From an uncultured Pseudomonadota bacterium (GTDB lineage: Bacteria > Pseudomonadota > Alphaproteobacteria > Rs-D84), in the NCBI GenBank assembly GCA_949283535.1, contig CASDTC010000003.1:2052-66051 (forward strand): DNA of 64,000 nucleotides. Reading direction: 5' to 3'. Shown here piece by piece: positions 34,395 to 52,701 of the stretch. The stretch's first letter is position 1. Every line of letters begins with the position of its first letter. Below the pieces are notes generated by a model. That model was given only the letters and a program-made list of their open reading frames with translations, was not told where the DNA came from and did not search any database. The translations under genes and the position numbers were made by a program.

Positions 34395-34413
34395 TTAAAT
34401 ATGGGGTGTTATT

Positions 34414-34710: not shown

Positions 34711-34713
34711 CTT

Positions 34714-36031: not shown

Positions 36032-36061
36032 AATAAAAAAAACTGGCATTGCCAGTTTTTT
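36032..36061. terminator. bidirectional intrinsic terminator
   Basis: The sequence is an A-run, ACTGGC-ATT-GCCAGT, then a T-run. Confidence 0.75.
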
Positions 36062-36620: not shown

Positions 36621-36709
36621 ACGCGCAATATATAATATATAAAAAATCTTTGCAACAACAATTTATTAAATTTTATAATGATTTTATGTATGAATAAAAT
36701 CATTTATAT

Positions 36710-37618: not shown

Positions 37619-37840
37619 ACTTTAAACCCCTGGGTTGAATAAAACTAAAAAGCCGTCATTTTTATCAGACGGCAGGAGTTTCAACACTATTGTATGCGTA
37701 ATAGCGTGATGCTTTCGATATATGACATCACACTCCTGCCGATGTATAGCAGGAGGCATTTAACGTCTGCACAGACGCGCATACAATGGGTGTTGAATCC
37801 CAGTATCGGAACCCCCGATACAATTAACATGATAAAATTG
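37619..37840 (-). promoter_or_regulatory. structured 5' leader of the GT8 gene: four-way junction plus terminator/antiterminator (riboswitch-like)
   Basis: Given in plus coordinates. P1 pairs 37680-98 with 37778-97 (18 bp). Three internal hairpins lie at 37706-31, 37733-55 and 37764-77. The terminator pairs 37652-57 with 37668-73 and has a U5 run only in minus sense. The 10-nt segment 37670-79 is perfectly complementary to 37732-41. Confidence 0.55.
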
Positions 37841-37869
37841 TCGAAAATAAAAAGCAAATTATTTGTTGC

Positions 37870-37897
37870 TTGCAATTAGAATTTTCTTTGTTATAAT
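37870..37897 (+). promoter_or_regulatory. sigma70-type promoter of tRNA-Met(CAT)
   Basis: TTGCAA - 16 nt - TATAAT lies 10 nt upstream of the tRNA 5' end. Confidence 0.6.
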
Positions 37898-37907
37898 TCG
37901 GGGCATT

Positions 37908-37984
37908 GGCGGGATAGCTCAGCTGGTTAGAGCAGTGGAATCATAATCCACGTGTCGGGGGTTCAAGTCCCTCTCCCGCTACCA
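37908..37984 (+). tRNA. tRNA with CAT anticodon (elongator Met or lysidine-modified Ile2), CCA encoded
   Basis: The cloverleaf GGCGGGA/TCCCGCT.ACCA has anticodon arm GTGGA-ATCATAA-TCCAC and T-arm GGGGG-TTCAAGT-CCCTC. Confidence 0.88.
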
Positions 37985-38011
37985 AAATCAAACCGGGCGA
38001 ATGCCCGATTT
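37968..38011 (+). repeat. direct repeat copy 1 (tRNA 3' end plus its terminator)
   Basis: TCCCTCTCCCGCTACCAAAATCAAACCGGGCGAATGCCCGATTT matches 38141-38184 at 43 of 44 positions. Confidence 0.9.
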
Positions 38012-38140
38012 TATTTTGGTATTTGTGTATGTGGACTTGAACCCCCGGGAAAGGGGGTTCAATCAAACAAATAGGCGCGTGGGAACGCGCCGGTTGCGGA
38101 CAGCAAATTTGTGCAGATGCGTCCACGCCAGTGGACGAAT

Positions 38141-38184
38141 TCCCTCTCCCGCTACCAAAATTAAACCGGGCGAATGCCCGATTT
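38141..38184 (+). repeat. direct repeat copy 2 (orphan tRNA 3' end plus terminator)
   Basis: TCCCTCTCCCGCTACCAAAATTAAACCGGGCGAATGCCCGATTT has no complete tRNA body in front of it. Confidence 0.9.
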
Positions 38185-38194
38185 GATTTTTTTA

Positions 38195-38863
38195 TTAAAA
38201 CTTGTTTCCGGTTTTTTCAAATCGTTTGTGTATGCATCCGATTGTAGTTTTATGTACACCGGCGGTTATGTCATAGTATATAAATCGTCCATCGCGGCGC
38301 GATTTCACAAAATCATCATCCAATAATTTTTTTAAATACTGGGATACTTTTATTTGTGGTATGCCGGTACCAGATACGATTTCTGATACGCATGATTCAC
38401 CATTATATATCAAGTATTCCAGTATGCGCATCTTGTCATAATTTGCAAACAGTTTTATCCGGTTTGCCGCCATTGTTGTATAATCTGTTGGCAAGATTTC
38501 TTTGTGTCCCGTGCGCAGAAATTTTAATTGGTCCGTCATATGACCAAACAGTTTGCGCAGGCAAACAAATATACTGGCGGGGTATTCGCGACATATTTCA
38601 TAATAAATAAATATCCCGCGGCGGTGTGTTTGTACCAAATCTGCATCGCGCATTTTACGCAGTGATTGCGATACTATCATTTGTTCGGCACCAACGGCGC
38701 GTGCAATTGCCGATACAGATGATGCGCCATATACATCCAGATATTCTAGTATACGCAAACGCAGTGGGTGCGCAATATATGTCAACCCGCGGACCGCGCG
38801 TTCCATAATGGCATCTGGTAACATGCATTTTATTTTTACATCTGGCAGAATTTGGTTCGACAT
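38195..38863 (-). CDS. transcriptional regulator with two tandem ArsR/SmtB-type winged-HTH domains
   Basis: It contains two copies of the pattern ..RLRILEYL...G..SV..IA...G......VSQ.L.K.....V...R.G.FIYY.I. Confidence 0.7.
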   Translation of the reverse strand: MSNQILPDVKIKCMLPDAIMERAVRGLTYIAHPLRLRILEYLDVYGASSVSAIARAVGAEQMIVSQSLRKMRDADLVQTHRRGIFIYYEICREYPASIFVCLRKLFGHMTDQLKFLRTGHKEILPTDYTTMAANRIKLFANYDKMRILEYLIYNGESCVSEIVSGTGIPQIKVSQYLKKLLDDDFVKSRRDGRFIYYDITAGVHKTTIGCIHKRFEKTGNKF

Positions 38864-38912
38864 ATCATTAATATAACATTATTTTTTTAAATCGTAAATA
38901 AATTATTTGACT

Positions 38913-38960
38913 TTTTGATATGTATTAATTATTATATATATAAATTTTGATATATATTAA
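38913..38960. promoter_or_regulatory. two 16-bp direct repeats in the divergent promoter region (candidate operator)
   Basis: TTTTGATATGTATTAA (38913-28) and TTTTGATATATATTAA (38945-60) start 32 bp apart, about 3 helical turns. Confidence 0.4.
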
Positions 38961-38988
38961 AAATACAATGTTTTGAAAGGGGAAATGT

Positions 38989-39495
38989 ATGAAATGTTTA
39001 TCAAAAATGCTTGCGGGGTTGGCGTGTGTGTTTCCGGCGGTGGCGGCGGCAAATCCGGCGTGTCCAATATGTACAATTGCAATTGGGGCGGGTGTTGGTG
39101 TTGCAGAATCGTTGGGGGTGCCGATTGGAATTGTTGGTCTGTGGGCGGGTGCGCTGTTGACATTGTTGGGATATTGGATGATTAAATTCTGTGATAAAAA
39201 GGGGTGGAATTTCTGGGGACGCAATGCATTGCTGATTGGTCTGTCGGTCGCAATGATTGGGTTTGCCTATGTGGGTGATATTGATTACAGTCCTGTTTGG
39301 ATTTGGAATGTTTTTTATGTGGATCCAATATTGTTTGGTGCAATCGTTGGGATGATTGTGTTTATACTGGTTGAAAAACTGTATGAATGGATGAAAGCGA
39401 AAAATGGCGGGCATGCACATTTTCCGTTTGAACGCGTTGTGTTGCCGGTGGTGGCACTGGCGTTGGTCAGTTGGCTGTTTTGCATATGCATGTAA
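38989..39495 (+). CDS. hypothetical polytopic membrane protein (168 aa)
   Basis: It has a signal-like N-terminus, a CPIC motif and 4-5 TM helices. It is divergent from the ArsR-like regulator. Confidence 0.55.
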   Translation: MKCLSKMLAGLACVFPAVAAANPACPICTIAIGAGVGVAESLGVPIGIVGLWAGALLTLLGYWMIKFCDKKGWNFWGRNALLIGLSVAMIGFAYVGDIDYSPVWIWNVFYVDPILFGAIVGMIVFILVEKLYEWMKAKNGGHAHFPFERVVLPVVALALVSWLFCICM

Positions 39496-39516
39496 TTTCT
39501 GTAACAGGGGGATAAA

Positions 39517-40095
39517 ATGGAAAAAATAAAAAATGTACGCGAATTTGTTGAAAAACTGGATGCAGCAAAAAAAGTTAATCCAAAGGATTTATCTTCGGAC
39601 CAAGATTTAACAATTGGTATTATGAATCTGATTTCAATCGAAGAGCATCTGATGTTTTCGGGTGCCAAAACAGGCAAGCATGAATTCTATGACTTGATTG
39701 ACGAAGTGCGCGAACAGCGCAAGCAGATGATGCAGAAAATCATCCCATCGTATGAAGGGGAAGTATGGTGTATTTCAAAGCATTTATTGGCGGCGTCTAT
39801 GCGTTTGTTTGAGGTTGGTACCAAAGCATTGGCGGCGGGGGATAAAGACGGGGCGTATGATTTGTTTGATCGGTCGTATGGACTGTATTGCATATTTTGG
39901 GGGTTAAATATGGGAATGCTGAATGGCGGGACGGATGTAAAATGGGTCAAGACAAAACATACATCTAAATCTGTGACATCGCACGCGCCACGCGCATCCC
40001 AGGCGGCAGATATAACCCCAGATGCAGCGCCGGCGGGTCGCATGTCAAAGTTAAAAAACTGGGTCAAAAATGCGGTTAATTGCTGTATAGAATAA
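39517..40095 (+). CDS. hypothetical protein (192 aa)
   Basis: A GGGGGATAAA RBS precedes the ATG. The protein is helical and soluble and ends in NCCIE. No family was recognised. Confidence 0.5.
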   Translation: MEKIKNVREFVEKLDAAKKVNPKDLSSDQDLTIGIMNLISIEEHLMFSGAKTGKHEFYDLIDEVREQRKQMMQKIIPSYEGEVWCISKHLLAASMRLFEVGTKALAAGDKDGAYDLFDRSYGLYCIFWGLNMGMLNGGTDVKWVKTKHTSKSVTSHAPRASQAADITPDAAPAGRMSKLKNWVKNAVNCCIE

Positions 40096-40114
40096 GTGTG
40101 TGCGTCTGTTGAAT

Positions 40115-40141
40115 CGCCCCGCAACAGGCGGGGTGTTTTTT
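40115..40141 (+). terminator. intrinsic terminator
   Basis: The sequence is CGCCCCGC-AACAG-GCGGGGTG followed by T6. Confidence 0.8.
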
Positions 40142-40145
40142 ATCC

Positions 40146-40173
40146 TTGATTTTTGGCGTGTGGCATTTATAAT
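40146..40173 (+). promoter_or_regulatory. sigma70-type promoter of tRNA-Thr
   Basis: TTGATT - 16 nt - TATAAT lies about 15 nt upstream of the tRNA. Confidence 0.5.
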
Positions 40174-40188
40174 TACCAGGCAATGATC

Positions 40189-40262
40189 GCCCTAATAGTC
40201 TAGTGGTAAAACACGTCCTTGGTAAGGACGAGTCGCAAGTCCGATTCTTGCTTAGGGCACCA
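40189..40262 (+). tRNA. tRNA-Thr (anticodon GGT), CCA encoded
   Basis: The acceptor is GCCCTAA/TTAGGGC-A-CCA and the anticodon arm is CGTCC-TTGGTAA-GGACG. The T-loop is atypical (TCCGATT) and the D-stem has one mismatch. Confidence 0.8.
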
Positions 40263-41778
40263 CTAAAGAATTCTCCCCCGAAAAACTGTTAAATAGCCCG
40301 AAAATCGGGGATAAATTTATAGTCCCAAATTTTTGTTCTTTGTTGTAGGAAATTTTGTCCCTAAAGCACAAATTTAGGACTACTTGTTTGATGTTGTAAT
40401 CTCCATTTTTCCATGCTTCAATGGGGCGTGAAATAAAATCAGATACATATCCGAACGCTTCATCAAATGGTATTAATTCAGGGGTAAAGTTATCAACTTC
40501 TGATTGTAGTGATAATTTCTCTGATTCCAGCGCATTAATTTTTGCGTTAAGTGCCTTTTTCATAACATCGTTTGCGCTGATATATGCGTCAGTGATTAAT
40601 GATTGTTCTTGTTCTATTGCAGATATGCGTTTCTTTTTTTCTTCGTTATTCGCACATGCTGCTTTATTGCGGTTTGAATATTCCCTTGTTGCTAATGCTC
40701 GTGCCAGCGCAATCAGATTCTCTTTCGGGGCAATTTTATTCAAAACCTCTGTTTCAAATTCTTCGTGCAAAATTTGCGGTGATACGTTGGCAAGTTTCTT
40801 TTTAGGGCAGTTCTTGTTTTGACATTGATAGTATGGATATTTGCCGCTTTTCGTCATACTAGCAGTTAACGGGCGACCACACTCGGGACAGGTTATAAAT
40901 CCCTTAAGAGGGAAGCGTTCATCATGTTTGTTGTATTTCTTGTGTCTAAGGCGATTTCGTCCATGTAGGCGGTCTTGGATTAAATCAAATGTCGCAGTAT
41001 CTATTAATGGTTCTATGTGCCATTTTTGTACTGGAATATCATATTTAGGATATGCGAATATACCCGTATATTTGCGGTCGGTTAAGATGCGTTTCACGAA
41101 ATCAAATATGTTTTTTGGGGTAGGGACGCCGGCTAAGTGCATTCTTTCTGTTAAAAAGTTTGCTACATCGGTCTGAGATACTAATTTTGCGCTGGCGAAT
41201 TGTTCTAGGGCTTCTTGTATTATCCCTGCCAATGGTTCTTGTCGTTTTAATTCTTTGCGTGCGCCAATTTTTACGAATTGGTATCCCTTTGGGGGTTGCG
41301 TAATCCAATACCCATTTCTGGCGGCTTCACGCATACCGGCAATAGTTCTTTCTCTGTTCTGGTCTGCGAATAACTCTGCCTGTGCCGCTTCTATTGTTGC
41401 CATGAATTTCCCGACAGGGCTTGTTTCTAAAATCCCTTTGCATGTTGCCAATCTGTGCCCGCATCGTTCCATAGATTTGCGTAATTTAATGAAATCTCCT
41501 GCGTTGCGTGCTAATCGGCTTATGTCATAAAATAATACCAGACGAGGTTCTTTTATTTTTGATAGATAATCTATCATTTCTGCAAGTTGATCACGTCCTT
41601 CGGTTTTAGTTCCTGTTTTTGCCGCATCTATATAAAATTTTTCGATTGTGCAGTTATTCCGTTGTGCCCAAGATTCGCATGCCCATTGTTGTGTATCCAG
41701 ACCGTTACCTTGGCTTACTTGCTTGTCGCTTGAAACCCTGTAATATGCAACTGCTGTATTAATTTTTATTTGTTCCAT
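40252..41778 (-). CDS. large serine recombinase (integrase)
   Basis: This 508-aa protein has a resolvase catalytic domain (AVAYYRVSSDKQ ... ISRLARN), a recombinase domain, a zinc ribbon (CPECG..(16)..YYQC....C) and a C-terminal coiled coil. The stop codon at 40252-54 lies inside tRNA-Thr. Confidence 0.88.
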   Translation of the reverse strand: MEQIKINTAVAYYRVSSDKQVSQGNGLDTQQWACESWAQRNNCTIEKFYIDAAKTGTKTEGRDQLAEMIDYLSKIKEPRLVLFYDISRLARNAGDFIKLRKSMERCGHRLATCKGILETSPVGKFMATIEAAQAELFADQNRERTIAGMREAARNGYWITQPPKGYQFVKIGARKELKRQEPLAGIIQEALEQFASAKLVSQTDVANFLTERMHLAGVPTPKNIFDFVKRILTDRKYTGIFAYPKYDIPVQKWHIEPLIDTATFDLIQDRLHGRNRLRHKKYNKHDERFPLKGFITCPECGRPLTASMTKSGKYPYYQCQNKNCPKKKLANVSPQILHEEFETEVLNKIAPKENLIALARALATREYSNRNKAACANNEEKKKRISAIEQEQSLITDAYISANDVMKKALNAKINALESEKLSLQSEVDNFTPELIPFDEAFGYVSDFISRPIEAWKNGDYNIKQVVLNLCFRDKISYNKEQKFGTINLSPIFGLFNSFSGENSLVVP

Positions 41779-41908
41779 TTTGTAAAACCTTATTAAAAAT
41801 AGTGTTAATTATGATTGTCAGATTATCTCTGCAACACTCTATTTCTTTATCGGTTAAACTAATGTTTTTGAGGTATTTGCGGCATTCTGCCACCGACATC
41901 GTCGCCAT
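41759..41908 (-). CDS. possible 49-aa ORF overlapping the recombinase start (MATMSVAECRKYLKNISLTDKEIECCRDNLTIIINTIFNKVLQNGTNKN)
   Basis: Hand translation shows the ORF ends 20 nt inside the recombinase gene in another frame. No RBS was recognised. Confidence 0.2.
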   Translation of the reverse strand: MATMSVAECRKYLKNISLTDKEIECCRDNLTIIINTIFNKVLQNGTNKN

Positions 41909-41981
41909 AGTGCCCACCAAAAGGTTTGCGTTTTGGCTCCGGTGCTTCCGATAATCAAAACATTGTTTCCTTTCAACATGT

Positions 41982-42806
41982 CTAGTCTGTTATTGCTTTG
42001 TTCTTTTTTTGTGTTTTTCCTTGTAAGTAGCTAACTTTACCGTCTTTTATGGTTAGATTAATTTGCCCGTATCCGATTTTGTTTATAAGATTATGTAAAC
42101 TTTCTGTATCTTTTGGTTTGCTTGCAAAGCTTTTTTCTACCAGGTTTATTCGATTTTTATTTGTTTTTACGGTTATTTCTCTTTTATCGTCTGCGAGACG
42201 GATGTTTTTTATAAGGTTCCATTCACTGTTATATAGCCAAAAAGTATCTTCATCCCATATTTGCATTGTTTTGTCTTTTAGAATTTCTTTTTCTACTTTA
42301 TTAAAGTTAATATAAATATAAGAAGCGGGAATGTTATTGGTTGTTCTATTTAGTGCGATATCTCGTTCTGTAATCACGCCTGTGTTTCCATTGCTATCTA
42401 TCAGAAGATATGTATTACCGTCTTCTATGCTGGTTTTTGAACGCAATAAAGCAAATTCAAGTCTGGTTATTGCGTTTGGGTTATTAGATTCTTGTGCAGG
42501 TAGATAAAGAGAGTTTTTTACTTGTTTAAGTTTTTCAATCGATAGACCAAATTTTCTTAGTTCTATAAGTATTGTCATTAATATTATGTCCATTGTAGAA
42601 AACTTGCGCCAACCTTGTGGTTTTTTGCGTTCGTCATCTAGAATTCCAGAACTTGTCCAACTGTTTATTATTCTAAAAGATAGTGGAGTTTGATTAGCGG
42701 ATTTGTTTCTTTCTCGAAGAGATTGTAAAATTTTGCAGTTGTTTAATTCTACGGCTTGTTGAATTAAATCCAGGTCTTTTTGTGTCCCATCTGTATAGTT
42801 GAACAT
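41982..42806 (-). CDS. MerR/excisionase-like HTH protein with uncharacterised C-terminal domain
   Basis: The start was trimmed to MFNYTDG. The segment FRIINSWTSSGILDDERKKPQGWRKFSTMDIILMTILIELRKFGLSIEKLK follows the MerR-type HTH pattern (yr.l..We..Gll.p.r...g.R.ys..dl..l..i..L...G.sl..ik). Confidence 0.5.
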   Translation of the reverse strand: MFNYTDGTQKDLDLIQQAVELNNCKILQSLRERNKSANQTPLSFRIINSWTSSGILDDERKKPQGWRKFSTMDIILMTILIELRKFGLSIEKLKQVKNSLYLPAQESNNPNAITRLEFALLRSKTSIEDGNTYLLIDSNGNTGVITERDIALNRTTNNIPASYIYINFNKVEKEILKDKTMQIWDEDTFWLYNSEWNLIKNIRLADDKREITVKTNKNRINLVEKSFASKPKDTESLHNLINKIGYGQINLTIKDGKVSYLQGKTQKKNKAITD

Positions 42807-42976
42807 TTTTGTATAACCTTTGTCCTTTACAAAAATATACAACAATGTATAATATTATCAAGTATTTTATACATATTTGTATATTTTTTATAAAAACAAA
42901 ATAAATACATTTTTACAGCCAATTTTTTTGAGAATTCTGCCGTTTTTTGTAATTATTTTATAATAGATTTTCTGTT

Positions 42977-44215
42977 TTAAAATTTATAATCAATCTTGAT
43001 AAGTCCTGTGTGGCTATGAAAATTTTGTCGTGCGCTTAATGAATATTCTATAGACAAACTTATTCCGTTATTGAAAGTTGTTTGTGCTGAAAGACCTGTT
43101 TCTATACCAAATGGATCCCATGATTTAAATGATGCGTTTGCAAAAATATCATGTGCATTATAATAAATTGTTATTTCATCGTTATCATATAAAATATCGT
43201 ATAAAATATTAAATTTCATCTTTATGGAAATGGGGGTTAGATTTATGGTGTGTTTGAGCCCGGTTGTCCATGTTAAAAAATGATTAGAGTCGAAAGATAT
43301 TTCATTACCAATAGAATCGTTATAAGAAACAGGTAAGAGATTCAGATAGCGCAAACCTGTTTCAGCTATAATATTTTGTGGCGTTTTATAGCCCATATTT
43401 ATAACAGTTCCGAAATTTGATGCACTGAAATTATCGATGTTTTTATACTGTGAAAATCCATAATTAAATAATAAACTTAGATACACATTATTAAAATTAT
43501 ACATTGAATATAAATGGATATTATGTATTGAATCATCTTGCGTGAGATTATTTTTATATGTTGTTTCTCCATCACTAAAAGAGTAACTAAAACCCAATAA
43601 CAGGTTGTTTTTAATGTGTTTGTCCATACCTATATGTAAACCGAAAGCAGAACTTGTGAAGTCAGAATAACTATTTTGCTTAAACCAATTATAAGATTCT
43701 GTTGCCCATAATGTTAAGTTGGAATGATAGGGCTCTTGGAATCTGTTATCTATTTGGTTTATATTTGAATAAAATATATTTCTTGTTTTGGCAGAAGTAG
43801 TAAAAACATAGTTTTCTTTGAGTTTTTCAGAAAAATACTCTTTTGCTTGTTTTCGAAGAGATTCTAATATGTAGTCTGCTTCCCAATAGAAGTAGTTTAT
43901 ACTAGGGTTTGTTGCGATGTCTTTCAACGTAACGTTTTTATATTTAAAGGTCGTTGGAGAGTATGGTGCTATATATTCTCCTCCTGAACCATCTGCAATC
44001 CATTCGGTCAATGTTATATCTAAATCCAAGGTTTCTAAATTATAGAAAAAATATGTATCAGATTGCATTGTTGCTGTTCCTGCAGGAACATGTCCAGGAT
44101 CTGCCAAAGAGTATACGGTATCATTGTATGCAGATATTATTGGGTTAATTGCATATGCTGAATTATAAAAATACAATGTAATAAATGTGAACAAGATAAT
44201 ATTTGTGTTTTTCAT
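42977..44215 (-). CDS. autotransporter-like outer-membrane beta-barrel protein
   Basis: The start was trimmed to MKNTNIILF.. (signal peptide ..NSAYA). The C-terminal 250 aa show alternating beta-strand patterns and end in ..IDYKF. A short N-terminal passenger of about 150 aa precedes the barrel. Confidence 0.55.
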   Translation of the reverse strand: MKNTNIILFTFITLYFYNSAYAINPIISAYNDTVYSLADPGHVPAGTATMQSDTYFFYNLETLDLDITLTEWIADGSGGEYIAPYSPTTFKYKNVTLKDIATNPSINYFYWEADYILESLRKQAKEYFSEKLKENYVFTTSAKTRNIFYSNINQIDNRFQEPYHSNLTLWATESYNWFKQNSYSDFTSSAFGLHIGMDKHIKNNLLLGFSYSFSDGETTYKNNLTQDDSIHNIHLYSMYNFNNVYLSLLFNYGFSQYKNIDNFSASNFGTVINMGYKTPQNIIAETGLRYLNLLPVSYNDSIGNEISFDSNHFLTWTTGLKHTINLTPISIKMKFNILYDILYDNDEITIYYNAHDIFANASFKSWDPFGIETGLSAQTTFNNGISLSIEYSLSARQNFHSHTGLIKIDYKF

Positions 44216-44487
44216 TTTTTTCCTTTTATGCAAAAAGACCGCCACGGGAATGACGGTCGGGCATTTTCAAAATCATAACGTGAATGATCCCATGGATTTC
44301 GGCGAACCTGTTGTATAGCCACAGATACCCGACCACAAGGTCAGGCAATAAAAGTGTGAAACACCATTTTTGCCGTAAAATCGGATAACGATGTTTTCAC
44401 ACCGCACGTTATGGGTTTTGAAAGCCCCCGAACCCATATCCCTATGGATTCGGAGTTATTTTAATATATGTGTGTAATCATTGCAAA
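44216..44487 (-). promoter_or_regulatory. structured leader/attenuator upstream of the OMP gene
   Basis: In minus sense the terminator is GACCGTCA-TTCCCG-TGGCGGTC plus U5 (plus 44232-58), 17 nt before the ATG. Mutually exclusive pairings link 44328-34 with 44339-45, or 44328-34 with 44255-61. G-U pairs form only in minus sense. Confidence 0.5.
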
Positions 44488-45090
44488 TTAAAATAATTTC
44501 GTTATTTCAGATATGATTGGCGCAAAAAATGTCATATGTGCTGCTGCGGACTGTATAAAGTTATTATATTTATCCATAAACCTTGAGCGGTTATTTGCAG
44601 AAATCGCTATTTTCATTTCTTCAATGCTGTTCAGGATGTTTTGTACAACTTCTTTGCTATCCGGCACTTGGGCGGCGATTGCTTTCATTTTATCAAAAAT
44701 TTCCAATTGGTCGTGATTTATGATATTTGTGACCGAATTATCCACTGAGCCAAAATTTACACGCGACCCATCCCCAGAAACTGAAATATTTACCCCACTT
44801 GCGTTTATTGTATCTTTCGTACGAGTGCGGTTTAACCCATTCACTTCGTCGTATCCACTTTCCGTAAGAATGTTAGGGGCAGTGATAAATCCTTTGCTTA
44901 CCATATCGTTCCAAATTTCATCAAAGTTATCTTTAATGTGTTGGCATTGTTCAAGTATCAAAGCACGTCGGATTGGTCGAGTTGGGATATACATGGTACC
45001 GTCTTGTCCGCGTGACGCAAACTTCCGCAACAAGTCATATAAAAAGGCTCTCGTATCGTCAAGTGCATTTTGTTTTGCTATATCGGTCAT
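44488..45090 (-). CDS. hypothetical protein (200 aa), partner of the AbiTii-like gene
   Basis: It starts 4 nt after the upstream gene. The central Asn/Ser-rich segment GVNISVSGDGSRVNFGSVDNSVTNI echoes the C-terminal tail of the upstream protein (GSTVNIASTDNSII). Confidence 0.55.
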   Translation of the reverse strand: MTDIAKQNALDDTRAFLYDLLRKFASRGQDGTMYIPTRPIRRALILEQCQHIKDNFDEIWNDMVSKGFITAPNILTESGYDEVNGLNRTRTKDTINASGVNISVSGDGSRVNFGSVDNSVTNIINHDQLEIFDKMKAIAAQVPDSKEVVQNILNSIEEMKIAISANNRSRFMDKYNNFIQSAAAHMTFFAPIISEITKLF

Positions 45091-45094
45091 TGTA

Positions 45095-45727
45095 TTATCC
45101 TTTGTTTATTATTGAATTGTCGGTTGAAGCTATATTTACAGTTGAGCCAGCACTGGCAATTATACTTATGCTGGAAATTTCAGGGTTCTTTTGTGCTTTT
45201 GATATTTCCTCGTTGGTAAAAGATAAGTTTTCCCCTAAAATTCCATTTTCTTCTAGTTTTAATGCCCATTCTAAAAGATTGTGCCGCACCGTTCCAAGAA
45301 TTGCCGAAATTGCATATCTTGTATAGAATACTGCCATTTGCATGGGTATTGTAAGCATATTATTGGCGACTGACGACAAAGGGGACATTAAGGTATTGTT
45401 TTCCTTACCAGCAGATAAAGACGCCTCTAATTCCGCAATTGAACTTGTCAAGTGTACAGTACTTAGAGTTTTTTCTGTTTCAAAGTCGGGGCATTGAATA
45501 TAAATCCACCCACGCATAGGGTTAAACGCTTTTAATACACCATGTATTTCTCGGTATTCAGGTAGATTATTTGCGTCGGGATATCCCTTAATTTCATTTT
45601 CTATGAATTCCCTTGATTCTGATATTTTTAATTTTCGTGCAATAAAGTAGGCTTTATTTAACGCGCTTAACAGACTAGCATTTGGGTCCATTAATTCTTT
45701 TTGCAAATCTATAACGATACTTGCCAT
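45095..45727 (-). CDS. AbiTii-like abortive-infection family protein
   Basis: N-terminal LLSALNKAYFIARKLKISESREFIENEIKGYPDANNLPEYREIHG and later VRHNLLEWALKLEENGILGENLSF fit the AbiTii domain pattern as recalled (L.KA..lA.kL.......W...EL.GY......P.YR). Confidence 0.55.
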   Translation of the reverse strand: MASIVIDLQKELMDPNASLLSALNKAYFIARKLKISESREFIENEIKGYPDANNLPEYREIHGVLKAFNPMRGWIYIQCPDFETEKTLSTVHLTSSIAELEASLSAGKENNTLMSPLSSVANNMLTIPMQMAVFYTRYAISAILGTVRHNLLEWALKLEENGILGENLSFTNEEISKAQKNPEISSISIIASAGSTVNIASTDNSIINKG

Positions 45728-46026
45728 AAGTTATACCTTCTCTTTTTGGTAGAGGTTATATCACAAAACCTGTCAAATCAAGTTTATATCTTTAAATATT
45801 CCTGTTCTTTCATGTGGTTAGTATAGGAACTATCTGCGCTGGGAGACAAATCCGCCGTTTGCGACGCGCAATATTAGCGATTTTGGGCGGCTTTTTTAAC
45901 CGTATTTTGACGATGTTAAAATGGTGGTTTATGGCCTTGCTAACCGCCTTGCTACTTTTTTGATTTATTGATTAATAAATCAGTGTGCCAGATACGAAAT
46001 AATAACGTCGTTTTTTACGTGGTTAT

Positions 46027-46956
46027 TTATTCTATTGGCAATATTTCCATTAAAGTATATGAGGTTTTTTCACTTGTATTATTTATAGTTATTTTCTTAG
46101 CTAATTTAAAATTATAGGCTTTGCCAGTGGTTTGTTCGTGGGCTAGATTTGCGTCTATTGTACCAGTTATTACTTCATCTTCGTTATCTTCGTCTAATTT
46201 TATATTAAAAGACGAAGTTGCATAATTAAACCCTTGCAATATGCCGTCTATCAGAATTTCTTCTTCAAATATTTGTGGTTCTGTCGGTTCTAGGGCTTTT
46301 TTGACTCTGTTTAATCTAGACAACTCAACATGTTTTGATACTTCATTGTCCGTGGATTTGTCCCATTTTATTTCTGCTGATATATTATTTTCTATGTGAC
46401 TATTGACCCATTCTTTCAATGCTTTAAAAGTCCCTAATCCGTATTTAGAAATCAACTCTTTTATTGACTCAGGGCTCTCTGTATTAATCATTTTTAAAGT
46501 TTCTTTCATAGCAAAATCAATATCAGAGCCAAATAAATTGTCTTTTTGAGCTTTTAGCGTCAATGCGATTCCAATAGAACCAGAATAAGTATAGGCGAAA
46601 CCTAATAGTGTCTCTTCTTTTGCCTTTTTTGTGATTCTGACATTATTCTTTGGTTTCTTTAATGTAATGGAATCATACACCAAAGAAAACAGATTTTGAA
46701 AACTATCTATAATGTCAGTTATCTGGGAAAATCCAACCCGTTCATTTACACAAAGCCTATAATCTAAAACAGATTCTTCCATTTTCGCTGCTTCCTCTGC
46801 AAAAGCAGCCTTTAATTCCTCACCAAACTTTTCTACGGACTTCAGAGAAATAGCCAATCCAAAATCGTTCGGATTTTTTGCCAATTCTGATTGCAGTCTT
46901 GTGATTTCCGCATTGTTATCAAATAATCTGGATTGGATTTCCAGTAAAGTAGACAT
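46027..46956 (-). CDS. hypothetical protein (309 aa), downstream partner of the nucleotidyltransferase
   Basis: It shares one nucleotide with the stop of the upstream gene (ATG at 46954-56). The N-terminus is coiled-coil-like and no known domain was recognised. Confidence 0.55.
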   Translation of the reverse strand: MSTLLEIQSRLFDNNAEITRLQSELAKNPNDFGLAISLKSVEKFGEELKAAFAEEAAKMEESVLDYRLCVNERVGFSQITDIIDSFQNLFSLVYDSITLKKPKNNVRITKKAKEETLLGFAYTYSGSIGIALTLKAQKDNLFGSDIDFAMKETLKMINTESPESIKELISKYGLGTFKALKEWVNSHIENNISAEIKWDKSTDNEVSKHVELSRLNRVKKALEPTEPQIFEEEILIDGILQGFNYATSSFNIKLDEDNEDEVITGTIDANLAHEQTTGKAYNFKLAKKITINNTSEKTSYTLMEILPIE

Positions 46957-47438
46957 TACTTGCCTCCATTTATTTGAATTACAGCTAAGCCTTTTAAGGT
47001 TTTGTCTCTATTAAAACAAAATAACCCTCTCCAATAAGCCATACCATCTATATCGGTTGTTGGTCGTGCATACACATCACAATGGCATCTGCATTTTAAA
47101 TCATCGTGGTTAGATACACACATATATAAAAAATTATTTATACAACTAACTTTTTCAGCAGAATATGGTTTGTTTGGGTCAAATTCTACCAAGACGTCTA
47201 TGTCTTCAGGATTTTCTTTTTCTGTGATAAAACTGCCGTCCACCCACACATCACACATCAGACCCGTGTTGGTCAACGGTATGATAAAATTTTCCACAAA
47301 ACTATCAAAAATGGTAGAACGTGTTGCCGAATTTGGAAAATTTTCCACGCACAAGGTCTTAACTTCCTCCAAAGTTTTGTTATGAAACCCTGCGGGCAAT
47401 AATCCCGGAAACGACAACTTATCAGGCATTTCTTTCAA
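46956..47438 (-). CDS. minimal pol-beta-fold nucleotidyltransferase (DUF6932-like)
   Basis: LLPAGFHNKTLEEV ... DVWVDGSFITEKENPEDIDVLV ... KGLAVIQI matches the remembered DUF6932 pattern (LPPG.H..t..Ef ... y.DGSFvT.K..P.D.D ... kGii.i.l), including the GS...D.D NTase catalytic motif. Confidence 0.6.
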   Translation of the reverse strand: MKEMPDKLSFPGLLPAGFHNKTLEEVKTLCVENFPNSATRSTIFDSFVENFIIPLTNTGLMCDVWVDGSFITEKENPEDIDVLVEFDPNKPYSAEKVSCINNFLYMCVSNHDDLKCRCHCDVYARPTTDIDGMAYWRGLFCFNRDKTLKGLAVIQINGGK

Positions 47439-47452
47439 TCTCTCTTTGCTAT

Positions 47453-47481
47453 ATTATACCACAAAATTGGTTAAATTACAA
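47453..47481 (-). promoter_or_regulatory. strong sigma70-type promoter of the NTase operon
   Basis: In minus sense it reads TTGTAA - 17 nt - TATAAT, with an extended -10 TG. Confidence 0.5.
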
Positions 47482-47564
47482 TTTGTTTACACAGAATAGA
47501 GGAAAAAAACGATAAGTCAAATTATTTCAAGATGTTATTGATAAGTATATTCCTATATACATTC

Positions 47565-47828
47565 TTATTCTTGTCCGGTGTTTAGTGGGTTGAAAGCCCG
47601 CTTATCTGTAAAACCGCCATTCACAACGTGCAGGATTTCACAAATCCCGCTTTCCTTAATAATCCTTGCATTTCGCATTATTTCATTATAAAATCTGTTC
47701 CAGTTGTCCCAACTTTTATGCAGTAGGGGCACCAGAAAATTTTTTGGGCATGCGTGTGATGATATGACTGACAACCATGGAATGCGCAAAACCCAGTAAA
47801 AGTTATAAGACAGGGTGGCACCGCGCAA
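47565..47828 (-). CDS. 87-aa ORF of doubtful status (possible gene remnant at the island edge)
   Basis: No RBS or family was recognised. The composition is closer to core sequence, and the ORF spans the tRNA-3'-like 11-mer at 47724-34. Confidence 0.2.
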   Translation of the reverse strand: MRGATLSYNFYWVLRIPWLSVISSHACPKNFLVPLLHKSWDNWNRFYNEIMRNARIIKESGICEILHVVNGGFTDKRAFNPLNTGQE

Positions 47829-47924
47829 TGCTATATTTGCGCCCCTGGAATTTAAATTGTGGGTGCCGTTTCAGATATTTGTATGAATTTGGTACCCAAC
47901 AGTAACAAAAAGGGTCCAAAAAAA

Positions 47925-49694
47925 ATGTTGTCTTTGAAATCAAAATACAGAACGCATACTTGTGGTGAATTGAATAAAGATAATGTCGGTGAAACGGTTG
48001 CCTTGTCTGGGTGGGTTCACCGTAAACGCGATCATGGGGCGTTATTATTTATTGATCTGCGCGATAATTATGGTATTACGCAATGCGTGTTTGATGGCGG
48101 CGATGAAGCGTTGGAAAAAGTTCGTCCAGAATCAGTGATTCAAATTACAGGTACTGTTGTTGCGCGTGATGCGGCGGCGGTTAATGAAAAAATTCCAACC
48201 GGTGCCATAGAAGTTAAGGCAGAAAAATGGCAGGTCTTGACAAATGCAGATGTTTTACCGTTCCAAGTCTTTGGTGATGATGACAGTGTTTCCGAAGATT
48301 TGCGTTTGAAATATCGTTATTTGGATTTACGGCGTGATTCTTTGCATAACAATATTTTAATGCGCAATCGCATGATTAAATTCATTCGTGATAAAATGTG
48401 GGAAATGGGATTTTCGGAATTTCAGACACCGATTTTAACAGCATCCAGCCCAGAAGGTGCACGCGATTTTATCGTGCCGTCCAGAATGCATCATGGAATG
48501 TTCTATGCATTGCCACAGGCGCCGCAGCAATTTAAGCAGTTATTACAAATTTCTGGGTTTGACAGATATTTTCAAATTGCGCCATGTTTTCGTGATGAAG
48601 ATTTGCGTGCAGATAGGTTATTGGAATTCTATCAATTGGATTTGGAAATGTCGTTTGTTGATTTGCCGGATATTCAAGCAGTTGGCGATACATTGATGCC
48701 GCAAATTATTCGTGAATTTGTCCCAGATGCAAAAATCTGTGAAGATATTCCACATATACCATTTGACGAGGCAATGTTGAAATACGGTTCTGATAAACCG
48801 GATTTACGCAATCCAATTATAATATCTGATGTAACAGATATATTCCGTGGATCTGATTTTGGTATATTTGCAAATGCAATTGAAAATGGCAGTATAGTTC
48901 GTGCAATTCCGGCACCAAACAGTTCAGATAAACCGCGTTCATGGTTTGACAAGTTGGGCGACTGGGCGGTCAAAGAATTGGGACTGGGCGGATTGGGATA
49001 TATAATCTTTGCCGATGAAGCCAAGGGACCAGTTGCAAAAAAACTGGATGCCGCGCGCGTTGCAAAATTGCGTGAAATTGCCGGTGATAATTCGTCATTA
49101 TTCTTTATCTGTGATGCGCCAGATGTTGCCGCCAAGGCGGCAGGCAAGTTGCGCAATAAACTGGGTGAAGATTTGGGATTGATTGATGAAAAAGAATTTC
49201 GTCTGTGCTGGATCGAAGAATTCCCATTCTTTGAAGCAGACCCGGAATCACCAACTGGTATTGCGTTTACCCACAATCCGTTTTCATTCCCGATGGCGAC
49301 ATTGGATGAATTGAAAACAAAAGATCCGCTATCTATCAAGGCGGCACAATTTGATATGGTTTTAAATGGCGCAGAAATTTGCAGTGGTGGATTACGCAAT
49401 TATAATCCAGATGTTATGTTGCGCTGTTTTGAAATAACTGGATATGGTGAAGAAACCGTTAAACAAAAGTTTGGTGGAATGTACACTGCATTCCAATATG
49501 GTGCGCCACCGCACGGTGGGTGTGCGTTTGGTTTGGACAGATTGGTTCAAATTATGTTGAATGAACCAAATTTACGTTCTGTTGTTGCATTCCCAACAAA
49601 TCAGCGTGGTCAAGATTTGATGATGGGATCACCAAGTCCGGTTACGGAACAACAACTGCGCGAAGTTCATATTCAAGTTCGCAAAAAAGGATAA
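47925..49694 (+). CDS. aspS: aspartyl-tRNA synthetase
   Basis: The start was trimmed to MLSLKSKYRTHTCGEL. It has an OB-fold N-domain, class II motif 2 (FRDEDLRADR) and motif 3 (GGCAFGLDRL). Confidence 0.93.
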   Translation: MLSLKSKYRTHTCGELNKDNVGETVALSGWVHRKRDHGALLFIDLRDNYGITQCVFDGGDEALEKVRPESVIQITGTVVARDAAAVNEKIPTGAIEVKAEKWQVLTNADVLPFQVFGDDDSVSEDLRLKYRYLDLRRDSLHNNILMRNRMIKFIRDKMWEMGFSEFQTPILTASSPEGARDFIVPSRMHHGMFYALPQAPQQFKQLLQISGFDRYFQIAPCFRDEDLRADRLLEFYQLDLEMSFVDLPDIQAVGDTLMPQIIREFVPDAKICEDIPHIPFDEAMLKYGSDKPDLRNPIIISDVTDIFRGSDFGIFANAIENGSIVRAIPAPNSSDKPRSWFDKLGDWAVKELGLGGLGYIIFADEAKGPVAKKLDAARVAKLREIAGDNSSLFFICDAPDVAAKAAGKLRNKLGEDLGLIDEKEFRLCWIEEFPFFEADPESPTGIAFTHNPFSFPMATLDELKTKDPLSIKAAQFDMVLNGAEICSGGLRNYNPDVMLRCFEITGYGEETVKQKFGGMYTAFQYGAPPHGGCAFGLDRLVQIMLNEPNLRSVVAFPTNQRGQDLMMGSPSPVTEQQLREVHIQVRKKG

Positions 49695-49715
49695 TTAATT
49701 TATTCTGTATTTATG

Positions 49716-49748
49716 CAGGTTCGCAATTTTGCGAACCTGTTTGTTTTT
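49716..49748 (+). terminator. intrinsic terminator after aspS
   Basis: The sequence is CAGGTTCGC-AATTTT-GCGAACCTG followed by TTTGTTTTT. Confidence 0.8.
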
Positions 49749-49816
49749 GTTGTGAAATCAAACCTATTAAAAATATTTTGTGTATAAATATAATTTTATT
49801 TCATAGGTGGATTATT

Positions 49817-50173
49817 ATGGTAAATGCGGATATTGATAAATTGGCAACAGTAATGGGATTAAGTGCGTATCAGAAAAATGTATTAAAATCTAATCAAGAT
49901 GCGTACAAATTAAATCGTTTAATAAAACACGGATGTGTTTTATATGCACCGCGTACAACACATTCAATGTCGTGTTTTATACGCAGAATTTTATTTGGAC
50001 GCCCCGCTGATTTAATTGGGACAAATAAAATGCTGGTTCGTAATCAGCGTGGAATTCATTTATTTTCACATGGGTTTTACAGTGTGCCTGTTGGACCATT
50101 TAAGTATTACGCCGATGAAAATGGTGATATTGTTGCACGGCGTAATGCATTACAAAAAATACATGAAAATTAA
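49817..50173 (+). CDS. hypothetical protein (118 aa)
   Basis: The start was trimmed to the ATG after a TAGGTGG RBS. No family was recognised. Confidence 0.4.
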   Translation: MVNADIDKLATVMGLSAYQKNVLKSNQDAYKLNRLIKHGCVLYAPRTTHSMSCFIRRILFGRPADLIGTNKMLVRNQRGIHLFSHGFYSVPVGPFKYYADENGDIVARRNALQKIHEN

Positions 50174-50179
50174 TCTGTT

Positions 50180-52654
50180 TTAAAACTGTTTATGTGTTTG
50201 TATAAAATCACGCATATATGTCGCATCAAAATTCGTCATGATTTCTGATAATGAATATTGATGTGTTCCGTTTGGCATAATCTGTAATTCTATGGGTTGG
50301 GGTGATGGTGATGTGCCGCGTAATATCATATTTATTTTGGCATACATTGCACCATCTGATATTTCAATGTTGCCCGTTGCATCGGTGTGGCGCAATTGCA
50401 ACATGATTGGTTCTGTTGTTTTAAAATCACCATTTTTATATTTGCCAATAATGCGCATTCGTTTGATTCTGGATTCGCCGCCGTCCAGTGCATATGATAA
50501 TGCGTATTCTGCATTAAAAGAATTTATTTGATTTGCCGCGGCAAACAAATCATCAATACCGATTCCAATTAAATATCCACTGTCAAAAGATAAATCAATA
50601 TCGCCAATTAAGTTATATTCTAAATCATGGGCAATATTACCAAATGTTTGCATATTTATTTCAGCGGTAATTGTTGTGTCGCGTACATTTAATGGCATAT
50701 GTGTGGATAATAATGTGCCATCTATTTTGAATTTATTTAATTGTACAAATACATTGTATTTGTTGCCATCACGCGATATCGTTGCCAATAAATTTCCGCG
50801 ATTTTTGTCAGTTATTGAAAATGTCTGTGACGATTTTTTTGACGAATAAACAAAATTTCTGAATGTTATTCCATTGTATATCAATTCATCCGCAGATAAT
50901 GATATGTTTATTGGTAATTCAAATGGAATTGTTATTGGCGGCATCATCAAGAATGATAATTCTTCGTAATTATCCAGGTAATATTGACTGATAAAAGAAT
51001 CCAGGTTTAATATATCTGTGCGTAATGTTATTGTGTCATCATTCAAACTGCCATAGAATTTATGGTCTGCAATTATTATTTCCAGGTTTGCAATATTTTT
51101 TCCGTTATATGTTCCGGATATTGTATATTCCAGATTTTTAAATGCACGGGTGTCAATATTTGGAAACCAATCTTTGGCATTTTTGCCATTTATCATGAAA
51201 TATTTATCGGTTAAATATAATTCCCACCTGCCAGATTTTGGAACAAAGTGCATCATATCATTGTCCCATTTGAAATCACCGATTGATGAACGCATAAATT
51301 GTGGTATTTGTTCAATGCTGGGGTCCAGCCATTGCAATGTTTTGTTGTTCGCAAATCTGTATGTTGGAATTATGTGATTGCCATCAATATTGTATGTGCC
51401 GCTGATGTCTGAAAATTCAAAATCAATTTTTCCGCGTGGTGTGAATTTTTGCATTTGATTTATAATATCACTGCGCGTTGGCATTGGTTGTTGCGAATAT
51501 ACCAATAAATTAAATTTATCGGGCGTAATTGTAATGGCACCAGTATAATCACCATATGTAAACTGTGTGCATTGCCAATTTGTTGGCGTGCCAGAAAATA
51601 TGCACATTGCGTGTTCGCCATGATATGGCATTTTTATAGTTATATTATGGGCGCCAAATTCATCAATTTCGCCACCAGTCATTGAAATATTGTCTGCGAT
51701 AACGGTGTCTATTTCCAATGCATCGCGCGTACCAGTTGCGCGTACAATTAAATGATTGAATTCATATTCACCAAATTTTAATTTGCCGGTAAAATCAAGA
51801 TCAAATTTTGTTTGATAAAATATACGCGATGGTTCCATTAAAAAAGATAAATCGTATGCTATATCATGCCCACGCAGTTGTACAATTTTTTCACCATTTG
51901 GTTTGATTTCTATATTGCCAGAAATTTTGTCCATTTTTATATCTGTAAATTTCCATCCACGACCGCCGTCCCATTCGAAATTCATGCTAAGTTTTACTGT
52001 TTTATCAATGCGTGGCTGGGAAAAACCAAACCAGCGATTTAAATCGTCTGTTTCCATTGATATATGACCGTTGGCGGCACCATCTGCAAATAGTTGTCCA
52101 GATATTTCCAGTTTGTCATTTTGATTGTGTACATAGAATGTATCATTATCAAAATCAATATCATATTTATGTTTTTCTGTTCGCACAACACCAACCAGAT
52201 GACTGCCGTCTATGGTGGCGTCTATGATTTCAATTTCGTGATTTCGAAAATTTATTTTTGAATTATATATATCAATAACATGATGAAAGTCTGTTGGTAT
52301 TAAACTGGATATACTGATATTGGCATCGTATATTGTTATGTCGCCTGTCAGTGGTGCAGATTCCAGATTAAATATACTGGACAATGGTACCGAAAACATT
52401 GCCGCCCCAATATGACCATGTGCAATTTCTATATCATTTACAACAATTGTTGTGCGTCCCAGCAAGCTGAAATGAATGTCGCCATTTATTTTTGCGGCAA
52501 CGCCTGTTTGTTCGGCAATTGCCTGGGTAATTTTAGGCTTTAAATTATTCAGGGTTATCATTGGCGGCACAATTACAATTGCCAGTATAAACAGACCGAT
52601 AATTGCAATTATCGACCAGAATATTCTGCGCTTATATCTGGGTTTTAATGCCAT
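50180..52654 (-). CDS. AsmA-family outer-membrane assembly/lipid transport protein
   Basis: This 824-aa protein has a single N-terminal TM (IFWSIIAIIGLFILAIVIV) followed by a long beta-rich periplasmic region. The N-terminal AsmA-like segment is LNNLKPKITQAIAEQTG..A.I.GDI.FSL. Confidence 0.7.
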   Translation of the reverse strand: MALKPRYKRRIFWSIIAIIGLFILAIVIVPPMITLNNLKPKITQAIAEQTGVAAKINGDIHFSLLGRTTIVVNDIEIAHGHIGAAMFSVPLSSIFNLESAPLTGDITIYDANISISSLIPTDFHHVIDIYNSKINFRNHEIEIIDATIDGSHLVGVVRTEKHKYDIDFDNDTFYVHNQNDKLEISGQLFADGAANGHISMETDDLNRWFGFSQPRIDKTVKLSMNFEWDGGRGWKFTDIKMDKISGNIEIKPNGEKIVQLRGHDIAYDLSFLMEPSRIFYQTKFDLDFTGKLKFGEYEFNHLIVRATGTRDALEIDTVIADNISMTGGEIDEFGAHNITIKMPYHGEHAMCIFSGTPTNWQCTQFTYGDYTGAITITPDKFNLLVYSQQPMPTRSDIINQMQKFTPRGKIDFEFSDISGTYNIDGNHIIPTYRFANNKTLQWLDPSIEQIPQFMRSSIGDFKWDNDMMHFVPKSGRWELYLTDKYFMINGKNAKDWFPNIDTRAFKNLEYTISGTYNGKNIANLEIIIADHKFYGSLNDDTITLRTDILNLDSFISQYYLDNYEELSFLMMPPITIPFELPINISLSADELIYNGITFRNFVYSSKKSSQTFSITDKNRGNLLATISRDGNKYNVFVQLNKFKIDGTLLSTHMPLNVRDTTITAEINMQTFGNIAHDLEYNLIGDIDLSFDSGYLIGIGIDDLFAAANQINSFNAEYALSYALDGGESRIKRMRIIGKYKNGDFKTTEPIMLQLRHTDATGNIEISDGAMYAKINMILRGTSPSPQPIELQIMPNGTHQYSLSEIMTNFDATYMRDFIQTHKQF

Positions 52655-52701
52655 TCCTCTATTCCCTTGTATTTTAATTATAATGAATTATATTAAGGCT
52701 T

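Follow-up and report, generated by a model that had tools for sequence, protein, structure and literature searches.

The 64,000-nucleotide stretch analysed here (the window; contig CASDTC010000003.1 of assembly GCA_949283535.1, positions 2,052 to 66,051 of the forward strand) carries a block of 7,472 bp (40263-47734) between a tRNA-Thr(GGT) gene (40189..40262, plus strand, on which ARAGORN and Rfam agree) and the right-flank host gene aspS (47925..49694, plus strand, with tRNA-synt_2, OB-fold and GAD domains and represented by 80 orthologous loci). The evidence supports reading this block as a small integrative island, hosted by a gut alphaproteobacterium of Candidatus Enterousia, with the tRNA gene as its attB target. 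Its integrase is a large serine recombinase (LSR), the integrated-state gene of which (40252..41778, minus strand, 508 amino acids) ends inside the tRNA, and a segment of 53 codons plus stop (LLHKSWDNWNRFYNEIMRNARIIKESGICEILHVVNGGFTDKRAFNPLNTGQE; 47565..47726, minus strand), in frame with the LSR across the crossover core, lies detached at the opposite end of the island. The island reading alone is ordinary; the self-truncating recombinase gene is what was unexpected.

The limits of the insert are defined by an 8-bp overlap of the two flank alignments in relatives with an empty site. Specifically, the left-flank alignment of locus L001 ends at window position 40262 and its right-flank alignment resumes at 47727, with an overlap of 8 bp, and the same junction recurs in L003, L004, L006, L007, L011, L014, L016, L018 and L033. 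The octamer GGGCACCA occurs only twice in the window, once as the final 8 nt of the tRNA (40255-40262, the attL copy of the crossover core) and once as the right end of the island (47727..47734, plus strand, the attR copy, at which the empty-site alignments restart), and both copies are the exact points where the flanks are joined in these relatives. The block is also absent, with 40262 joined to 47727, from contigs L096-L099 (the best 4 of 19 similar places), which belong to the same species since they encode a 192-aa left-flank protein identical to that of the window. In 16 other Enterousia species representatives, the gap between the tRNA and aspS is only 173-196 bp. The search for an empty tRNA-Thr/aspS junction that a first-pass annotation, made from the sequence alone, had proposed thus succeeded, both within the species and among its sister species, and the 11-mer at 47724-34 that it had put forward, as weak evidence, for a displaced remnant turned out to be the true attR.

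The attL, attR, attB and attP sequences were reconstructed (attP junction, ...TTTTATGCAGTAGGGGCACCACTAAAGAATTC...; empty attB, ...CTTAGGGCACCAGAAAATTTTTTGGGC...), and the identity shared between them is 8 bp here (GGGCACCA) and 6-10 bp in relatives. By alignment, the crossover is placed within the last 6-8 nt of tRNA-Thr(GGT), inside the shared GCACCA/GGGCACCA; dyad-symmetry scoring of the reconstructed attP and attB yielded no consistent centre for the crossover dinucleotide within TGGTGC. The tRNA-Thr gene is 100% identical in 59 related loci, empty and occupied alike. The earlier suggestion that the element supplies the present 3' end of the tRNA can therefore hold for a few nucleotides at most, given this identity and a crossover that falls inside the shared sequence.

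In composition, the island (G+C 0.349; cargo 0.337) lies below the rest of the window (0.394) and below every other 7.5-kb interval of the sequence, which bears out its description as AT-rich, although this does not extend to the LSR gene itself (0.395). All sizeable ORFs (open reading frames) between 40252 and 47438 are on the minus strand, and aspS resumes with its ATG at 47925, both as first annotated. [quoted passage not shown]

The large serine recombinase and its detached C-terminal tail

The LSR ORF contains Resolvase (PF00239, E = 2.7e-30), Recombinase (PF07508) and Zn_ribbon_recom (PF13408) domains and matches the PHROG 95 integrase family (E = 8e-74). Across 66 homologues, the nucleophile S16 and residues R14, R88 and R91 are invariant or nearly so, and the zinc-ribbon cysteines C297, C300, C319 and C324 are conserved. 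An AlphaFold2 (AF2) model built with the alignment of these homologues (mean predicted local distance difference test score, pLDDT, 88.6) comprises the catalytic domain, helix E, the first DNA-binding domain (DBD1) and a zinc-ribbon second domain (DBD2), into which a coiled coil is inserted at residues 353-429 (helices 353-399 and 404-429). Foldseek searches with the whole model retrieved the cryo-EM structures of Bxb1 (9iu2), SPbeta-type (9y66/9dxd) and PhiC31 (9tep) integrases at E ~1e-17. With a catalytic domain, DBD1, a zinc-ribbon DBD2 carrying a coiled coil and a short att identity, membership in the LSR family is secure as far as sequence and predicted structure can tell. All catalytic and DNA-binding domains are retained in the integrated 508-aa ORF; the concern raised earlier that the recombinase might prove truncated is not borne out, its catalytic residues, zinc-ribbon cysteines and whole fold being predicted intact.

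[quoted passage not shown] The first-pass annotation had located this stop correctly, but the arrangement is more than compaction: the frame extends across attP, and integration strips it of a conserved stretch at the C-terminus, a feature which that annotation had missed. When the excised circle is reconstructed, the LSR frame runs through TGGTGCCC into 47726-47565 with no stop and gives a protein of 561 aa. The gene is split at codon 508 of 561, and its last 53 codons end up 7.4 kb away at the far end of the island. The 561-aa form would consist of the LSR body (residues 1-~502), a flexible linker at the crossover, a conserved amphipathic helix (~510-544) and a short variable end: AF2 predicts low confidence at 503-510, a helix at 510-544 (pLDDT 63-76) and disorder at 545-561, with no alignment depth over the tail, and a single-sequence AF2 prediction of the 561-aa form has a pLDDT of 37.

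The same peptide, in the same phase and next to the same core, is present at the far ends of L002, L009, L019, L034, L039, L058, L067, L017 and L038. Nine elements, including that of the window, could be followed to both ends, and an in-frame homologous tail stands at the far end in 9/9 (the others being L002, L019, L034, L084, L081, L082, L087 and L086). These elements of 4.1-8.4 kb target tRNA-Thr genes with GGT and TGT anticodons, and their recombinases measure 508-557 aa as integrated and 541-588 aa as reconstructed. With LSR identities of 39-99%, they delimit the clade to which the conservation of the tail refers. The contexts of the more distant homologues, fetched through exact protein look-up, include L084 (P0010; LSR identity 76%), L081 (P0014; 55%) and L086 (P0027; 39%) at tRNA-Thr GGT, together with L082 (P0019; 43%) and L087 (P0026; 39%) at tRNA-Thr TGT, each with the tail in frame.

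Several features of the tail are those of a protein-coding sequence. Over its first 42 codons, dN/dS by the NG86 method is 0.07-0.30, and over codons 12-42, which lie past a normal attP half-site, pN/pS is 0.12-0.50, with third positions accounting for 22/41 variable columns. Conservation reaches ~125 bp beyond the core, as against a half-site of 25 bp, and the similarity of the peptide persists in L081, L082, L087 and L086, where the DNA no longer aligns. A hidden Markov model built from the close tails, searched against 36,459 six-frame ORFs, retrieves L017 (E = 4e-7) and L087 (E = 4e-4) and, weakly, remnants in inserts that lack a recombinase, at the end nearest to aspS. The motif TGGTGC(C/A)CC directly precedes the tail in 16/16 copies. 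In a search of PDB sequences the protein was matched in its catalytic domain only, and PHROG 95 does not cover the tail. Judged by these substitution patterns, the tail evolves as a coding sequence under purifying selection, and a chance open frame is disfavoured because the tail is kept at all far ends, in frame, with a coding type of evolution and always after the core.

The joined form was sought in large collections. Exact patterns of the attP junction were found in neither metagenome contigs nor viral contigs. A word-indexed search of 5.8 billion proteins, with the reconstructed protein and the tail alone as queries, returned no contiguous 561-aa protein: all database homologues end at no more than 91% of the reconstructed query, and the tail alone matched only orphan ORFs of 48-78 aa with unrelated N-termini. 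An exhaustive phmmer search of 1.84 billion representatives with the tail likewise found no contiguous version, only ORFs of 51-118 aa at attR; its long matches P0091, P0095 and P0096 were rejected as unrelated repeat proteins. A candidate homology between the LSR and the host flank upstream of attR was also rejected, the single tblastn alignment being explained by the identical tail alone.

On the other side of the split, the C-terminus of the integrated protein is whatever the host tRNA encodes. Here the ORF stops after ...LVVP; elsewhere the tRNA-derived extension comprises 41 residues in P0010 and 20 in P0014 and reads VVGLEPTTL in the tRNA-Thr(TGT) group, the junk residues that close the integrated ORF in other hosts numbering 9-41. 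[quoted passage not shown] These four distant homologues were fetched with their contexts and lie at tRNA-Leu (L092), tRNA-Ser (L093 and L101) and tRNA-Ala (L094). The far ends of L089, L090, L092, L093, L094 and L101 were not found within 10-kb flanks (larger elements or contig ends). The arrangement with the attachment site inside the ORF is conserved across the clade and probably across a wider superclade. Among public gene calls, tRNA-translated C-termini (for example, VVGLEPTTL and GFEPAHPFGRHHLKVVRLPISPPG) occur in P0010, P0014-P0021, P0025, P0026, P0032-P0056, P0059, P0075 and P0080; they are a systematic annotation artefact of this arrangement.

One tandem array departs from this pattern. 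At L034:3000-4980 (minus strand), the LSR frame passes through the core and continues not into a tRNA but into the adjacent element, which ends in a tail-like sequence (VPQMISQEDHMTRFYNLVMDMSTQLGYICRAFGD, then a stop), meaning that a hybrid 'full-length' recombinase exists in the integrated state; that adjacent element encodes a small resolvase and has a methyltransferase-like gene. An additional serine recombinase, of small size (Resolvase plus HTH_7), is seen at L085:442-1005, L086:2787-3350, L093:5279-5833, L101:1-280 and L034:~2677-3333, and in L085 and L086 it lies directly after the detached tail at the far end. The distant relative L101 carries a TraG/TrwB-like coupling protein.

Core module, cargo and traffic at the tRNA-Thr site

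Upstream of the LSR lie two further genes of a conserved three-gene core. A small ORF of ~49 aa (MATMSVAECRKYL...; 41759..41908, minus strand), with no match in Pfam or PHROG, overlaps the LSR start codon, as do homologous small ORFs in L081, L087, L089, L091 and L082, and this overlap suggests translational coupling. It is preceded by a gene for a MerR-like helix-turn-helix (HTH) protein of ~274 aa (41982..42806, minus strand; the mechanical ORF extends to 42845), homologues of which (194-279 aa) are found directly upstream of the LSR in L081, L082, L084 and L089. The protein has no PHROG match, and in Pfam only a weak one to MerR_1 (E = 1.2e-4; 22.5 bits against a cutoff of 21.6). Both genes are conserved in sequence and position across the recombinase clade, and their products are candidates for a directionality factor or a regulator. 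The cargo beyond this core is exchangeable.

The cargo of the window begins with an autotransporter-like outer-membrane beta-barrel protein (42977..44215, minus strand; PF03797, E = 1.6e-11). The mechanical GTG start of this gene at 44245 falls inside a terminator hairpin (44258-44237), and translation more probably begins from the ATG at 44215, giving a typical signal peptide, MKNTNIILF... (MKNTNIILFTFITLYFYNSAYA). Further along the island are a 200-aa protein (44488..45090, minus strand) with a weak match to PHROG 16834 and none in Pfam or PADLOC, placed as the partner downstream of the abortive-infection protein AbiTii (45095..45727, minus strand; PF18864, E = 1.3e-38; PADLOC AbiTii, E = 5.5e-42), and the candidate defence pair PDC-M63 B (46027..46956, minus strand; PADLOC PDLC04747, E = 3.5e-18) and PDC-M63 A (46956..47438, minus strand; DUF6932, PF22014, E = 8.9e-25; PADLOC PDLC04744, E = 2.2e-35). 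The DUF6932 protein bears a GS...DxD nucleotidyltransferase-like motif and resembles a minimal nucleotidyltransferase. By sequence, the element can be described as a putative anti-phage defence island, AbiTii being a known system and PDC-M63 A/B a candidate one. The first-pass cargo assignments mostly hold, with the autotransporter beta-domain, AbiTii and the nucleotidyltransferase-like DUF6932 protein recovered, but the MerR_1 assignment is weak. Scans of the island proteins against Pfam, NCBIfam, PADLOC and PHROG found no relaxase, type IV secretion system, coupling, capsid, terminase or replication genes, and the candidate identities of prophage, integrative and conjugative element and integrative mobilizable element were rejected for an island without such genes.

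The 'attenuator leader' noted earlier ahead of the autotransporter-like gene corresponds to a predicted structured leader or small RNA of ~240 nt (44232..44490, minus strand), which has a promoter-like site of its own (TTGCAA-17-TAAAAT) and ends in an intrinsic terminator. Further copies are present at L019:4860-5170, L030:8215-8515, L034:7575-7875, L038:7682-7990 and 4795-5125, and L058:1115-1420. In the alignment (7 copies, ~3 distinct sequence types), 16 of 70 pairs show compensatory changes, compared with 7.5 +/- 1.9 in shuffles (0/500 reach 16) and 1-3 in slid controls, and a long-range helix of 15 pairs includes nine that covary. A GGTCGGG/CCCGACC pairing is an alternative that might serve as an antiterminator. 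No Rfam family matches the leader at E <= 1. Across several tRNA-Thr islands it precedes different envelope genes (autotransporter-like outer-membrane proteins, lipoproteins and small membrane proteins), and these sequence features make it a candidate for a new small RNA or riboswitch-like leader.

A scan for AspS in species-representative genomes recovered the 80 loci, nearly all of them from gut metagenome-assembled genomes of Candidatus Enterousia or uncultured Alphaproteobacteria, and an identical tRNA lies upstream of aspS in most. Three of these loci have LSR genes nearly identical to that of the window at the DNA level (99.7% in L002, 98.6% in L009 and 97.2% in L019), with left flanks at 97%, 75% and 83% identity and aspS at 87%, 81% and 84%, respectively. 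As the LSR is near-identical while the host flanks are much more diverged, the LSR module has moved recently. The elements that share it differ in cargo, L002 matching the window up to 44451, and L009 and L019 only to ~41970. The tRNA-Thr site is an integration hotspot at which elements arrive and often decay.

Competing explanations and a possible state-dependent switch

The explanation that we consider likely overall is an island whose LSR carries attP inside its own ORF and exists as two state-specific isoforms. The LSR inserted the island through crossover in GCACCA/GGGCACCA at the 3' end of tRNA-Thr(GGT), and with attP lying within the 3' end of the LSR gene, integration removes the 53-residue tail and excision would restore it. 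The element would thus encode a recombinase of 561 aa in the circle and one of 508 aa when integrated. The anatomy on which this depends, namely the insertion, the att sites and the in-frame detached tail, is in our judgement very likely to be correct.

Several observations nevertheless weigh against this explanation and lend substance to others. The unsplit gene and the attP junction were found in no collection, and the 561-aa form is a reconstruction from two ends; the helix in its tail is predicted with a pLDDT of only 63-76 and without alignment depth; and the tail stops earlier in L009 (33 aa) and in L039 and L067 (38 aa). Moreover, the first ~10 codons of the tail overlap the P arm of attP, where the DNA motif AAAGTTGGGA is conserved, and part of the tail conservation may act at the DNA level. 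Taken to its end, this consideration would leave an ordinary LSR island in which the frame is open only by chance and the tail is conserved because it holds accessory binding sites, a promoter or a lengthened attP arm. An LSR binding arm must indeed occupy the ~30 bp that follow the core, the motif AAAGTTGG is present in all reconstructed attP sequences, the first 90 nt are nearly identical across the window, L002, L009, L019, L039 and L067, and the fused protein is absent from all searches. Yet a DNA-level account appears quite improbable to us, as conservation extends far past a half-site of 25 bp, to ~125 bp from the core, the changes beyond codon 12 are mostly synonymous or at third positions (the pN/pS of 0.12-0.50 given above), the peptide outlasts the DNA alignment in L081, L082, L087 and L086, and the frame is open and in phase in 9/9 elements. 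That the tail is instead an independent gene of ~55 aa, translated from the GTG of the core or from fortuitous starts as a small regulator or directionality factor, with its phase relative to the LSR a by-product, we hold to be improbable. The DNA upstream of the attR core is host sequence or a neighbouring element, varies from site to site and has no conserved ribosome-binding site or promoter, the N-termini called for such ORFs are mutually unrelated, and selection would be hard to maintain if arbitrary host DNA supplied the expression signals; this is so even though an in-frame GTG is always present in the core, gene callers annotate ORFs of 48-118 aa over the tail in 12 clusters, and the size and helical nature of the tail resemble those of small recombination directionality factors (RDFs; 10.1101/2025.01.03.631226).

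Other adverse observations concern mobility. The site holds many inserts without an LSR (1-9 kb) and tandem arrays, an LSR C-terminal fragment is present in L030, and degraded tails are found in L005, L038, L030, L031 and L025; such abundant remnants and arrays fit elements that often fail to leave. In addition, identity to same-species contigs (L098 and L001) is 92-100% per kb on the left (30000-40262) and 84-89% for at least 12 kb to the right of the island (47735-59734), with the step, from ~96% to ~87%, exactly at the att site. The contig may be an assembly chimera of two co-occurring species formed via the shared island, or may have imported one flank together with the island; neither event alters the mapping of the att sites. 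These features could be read as those of a decaying, immobile remnant whose presence and absence arise through deletion or through homologous exchange of the tRNA-aspS interval, since the divergence step suggests homologous recombination or chimerism and no circle junction was found in contig collections. Such a remnant is very improbable here, however: the LSR of this copy is intact and lacks none of its catalytic residues, the core module and the tail are intact too, the boundaries fall exactly on the 8-bp repeat at the tRNA end, and a 98.6%-identical LSR gene resides in a host with flanks at 75-81% identity, too diverged for flank-mediated exchange.

With attP inside the LSR ORF, the full-length protein would matter in the circle, because only there can the tail be fused and yet the tail is conserved; made from the circle, this form would act in integration or in commitment to it. 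Any self-excision would fall to the tail-less form, because the integrated element can express no other, probably with the help of the small ORF product and/or the MerR-like protein. Two models for the tail itself are consistent with this. Under one, the tail would make the enzyme integration-proficient or insensitive to the factor, and the tail-less form would excise with the co-translated factor. Under the other, the tail would be required for full activity, and integration would partly disable the enzyme, a mild 'suicidal' lock that fits the many decayed elements at the site. The linker and helix are well placed to affect directionality, because the RDF helix of SPbeta acts at the integrase C-terminus. 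Even so, that the tail has a state-dependent directionality or locking function is a tentative proposal, possible on present analysis and somewhat doubtful. We would regard as unlikely, if conceivable, the broader extension in which an old superclade of tRNA-targeting LSRs stores directionality in the state of its DNA, the tethered helix making the enzyme integration-committed or factor-blind; the integrated, tail-less enzyme may then be excision-competent with a factor or, alternatively, locked.

Relation to known systems and significance

The element shares with Bxb1, PhiC31, SPbeta SprA and A118/LI Int the same domain order, the full-length fold, a short identity core and an integrase at the end of the element. 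By contrast with these LSRs, it targets a tRNA 3' end, has its attP inside the integrase ORF so that the product differs by state, and carries an extra C-terminal linker and helix that are unmatched in PHROG 95 or PDB sequences. To our knowledge, characterised LSRs mostly target protein-coding genes. A large survey of LSRs nowhere mentions tRNA targets or overlap between ORF and att site (PMC10083194), and among tycheposons, a minority of which carry LSRs, an ORF spanning attP is not described.

The closest topology is that of the SSV-type 'suicidal' tyrosine integrases (SSV1, pTN3 and pT26-2), which were stated in a 2021 review to be exclusive to Archaea (PMC8371274). In these systems attP lies within the recombinase gene, the target is a tRNA, the gene is partitioned on integration and a compact int-att module is exchanged (PMC8371274). 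The present locus has the same topology, with attP inside a recombinase ORF, a tRNA target and a gene split on integration. The SSV-type enzymes, however, are tyrosine recombinases (Phage_integr_3) that the split divides into Int(N) and a catalytic Int(C), neither of which stays active, whereas here an alphaproteobacterial serine recombinase loses only a 53-aa tail; it is neither an archaeal tyrosine enzyme nor one whose catalytic part is separated.

Mycobacteriophages BPs and Brujita, known for integration-dependent immunity, reportedly have attP within an ORF and a prophage protein that is C-terminally truncated and behaves differently; the split gene is said to be the repressor, the integrase a tyrosine recombinase and the removed tail an ssrA-like degron. 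In both cases the state of the DNA sets the isoform, but in the present island it is the recombinase gene that is split, and the part removed is a predicted helix that is conserved. The LSR-mobilised elements Tn4451 and Tn4453, which encode TnpX, are likewise said to alter recombinase expression through the circular joint, which in Tn4451 reportedly creates the tnpX promoter; by contrast, the joint reconstructed here completes a coding sequence and not a promoter.

[quoted passage not shown] What is essential in the RDF is a single helix of ~22 aa that packs between DBD2 and the coiled-coil hinge, the native integrase C-terminus contacts the RDF, and one helix tethered in this way controls directionality (10.1101/2025.01.03.631226). 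The reconstructed 561-aa protein has the same architecture as the engineered SPbeta and PhiC31 Int-linker-RDF fusions, that is, an LSR body, a flexible linker and a short C-terminal helical module. Those fusions are synthetic and permanent, whereas the helix found here is natural, unrelated in sequence to the tested RDFs, and would be attached and detached by recombination. No description of an LSR ORF spanning attP was found in the literature searched, the coverage of which was incomplete, so that this is absence of evidence only.

The locus and its relatives show that bacteria, too, have the self-splitting topology, with a serine integrase and in a milder version, since the body of the enzyme is left intact. 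For annotation, they mean that the C-termini of such recombinases in databases are translated tRNA, and that the real C-terminus is called, if ever, as an orphan small ORF. They also document an active integration hotspot and traffic in defence genes in Enterousia, a poorly known gut lineage with reduced genomes. What sets the direction of LSRs is a current structural question, and a C-terminal helix that is attached or removed by the enzyme's own reaction would provide a testable link to it. The arrangement may also offer inspiration for self-limiting integrases in genome engineering. If the switch reading were true, these elements would be to bacterial serine recombinases what the 'suicidal' integrases are to Archaea, and would contain a switch of the integrase-RDF kind that occurs in nature and rewrites itself.

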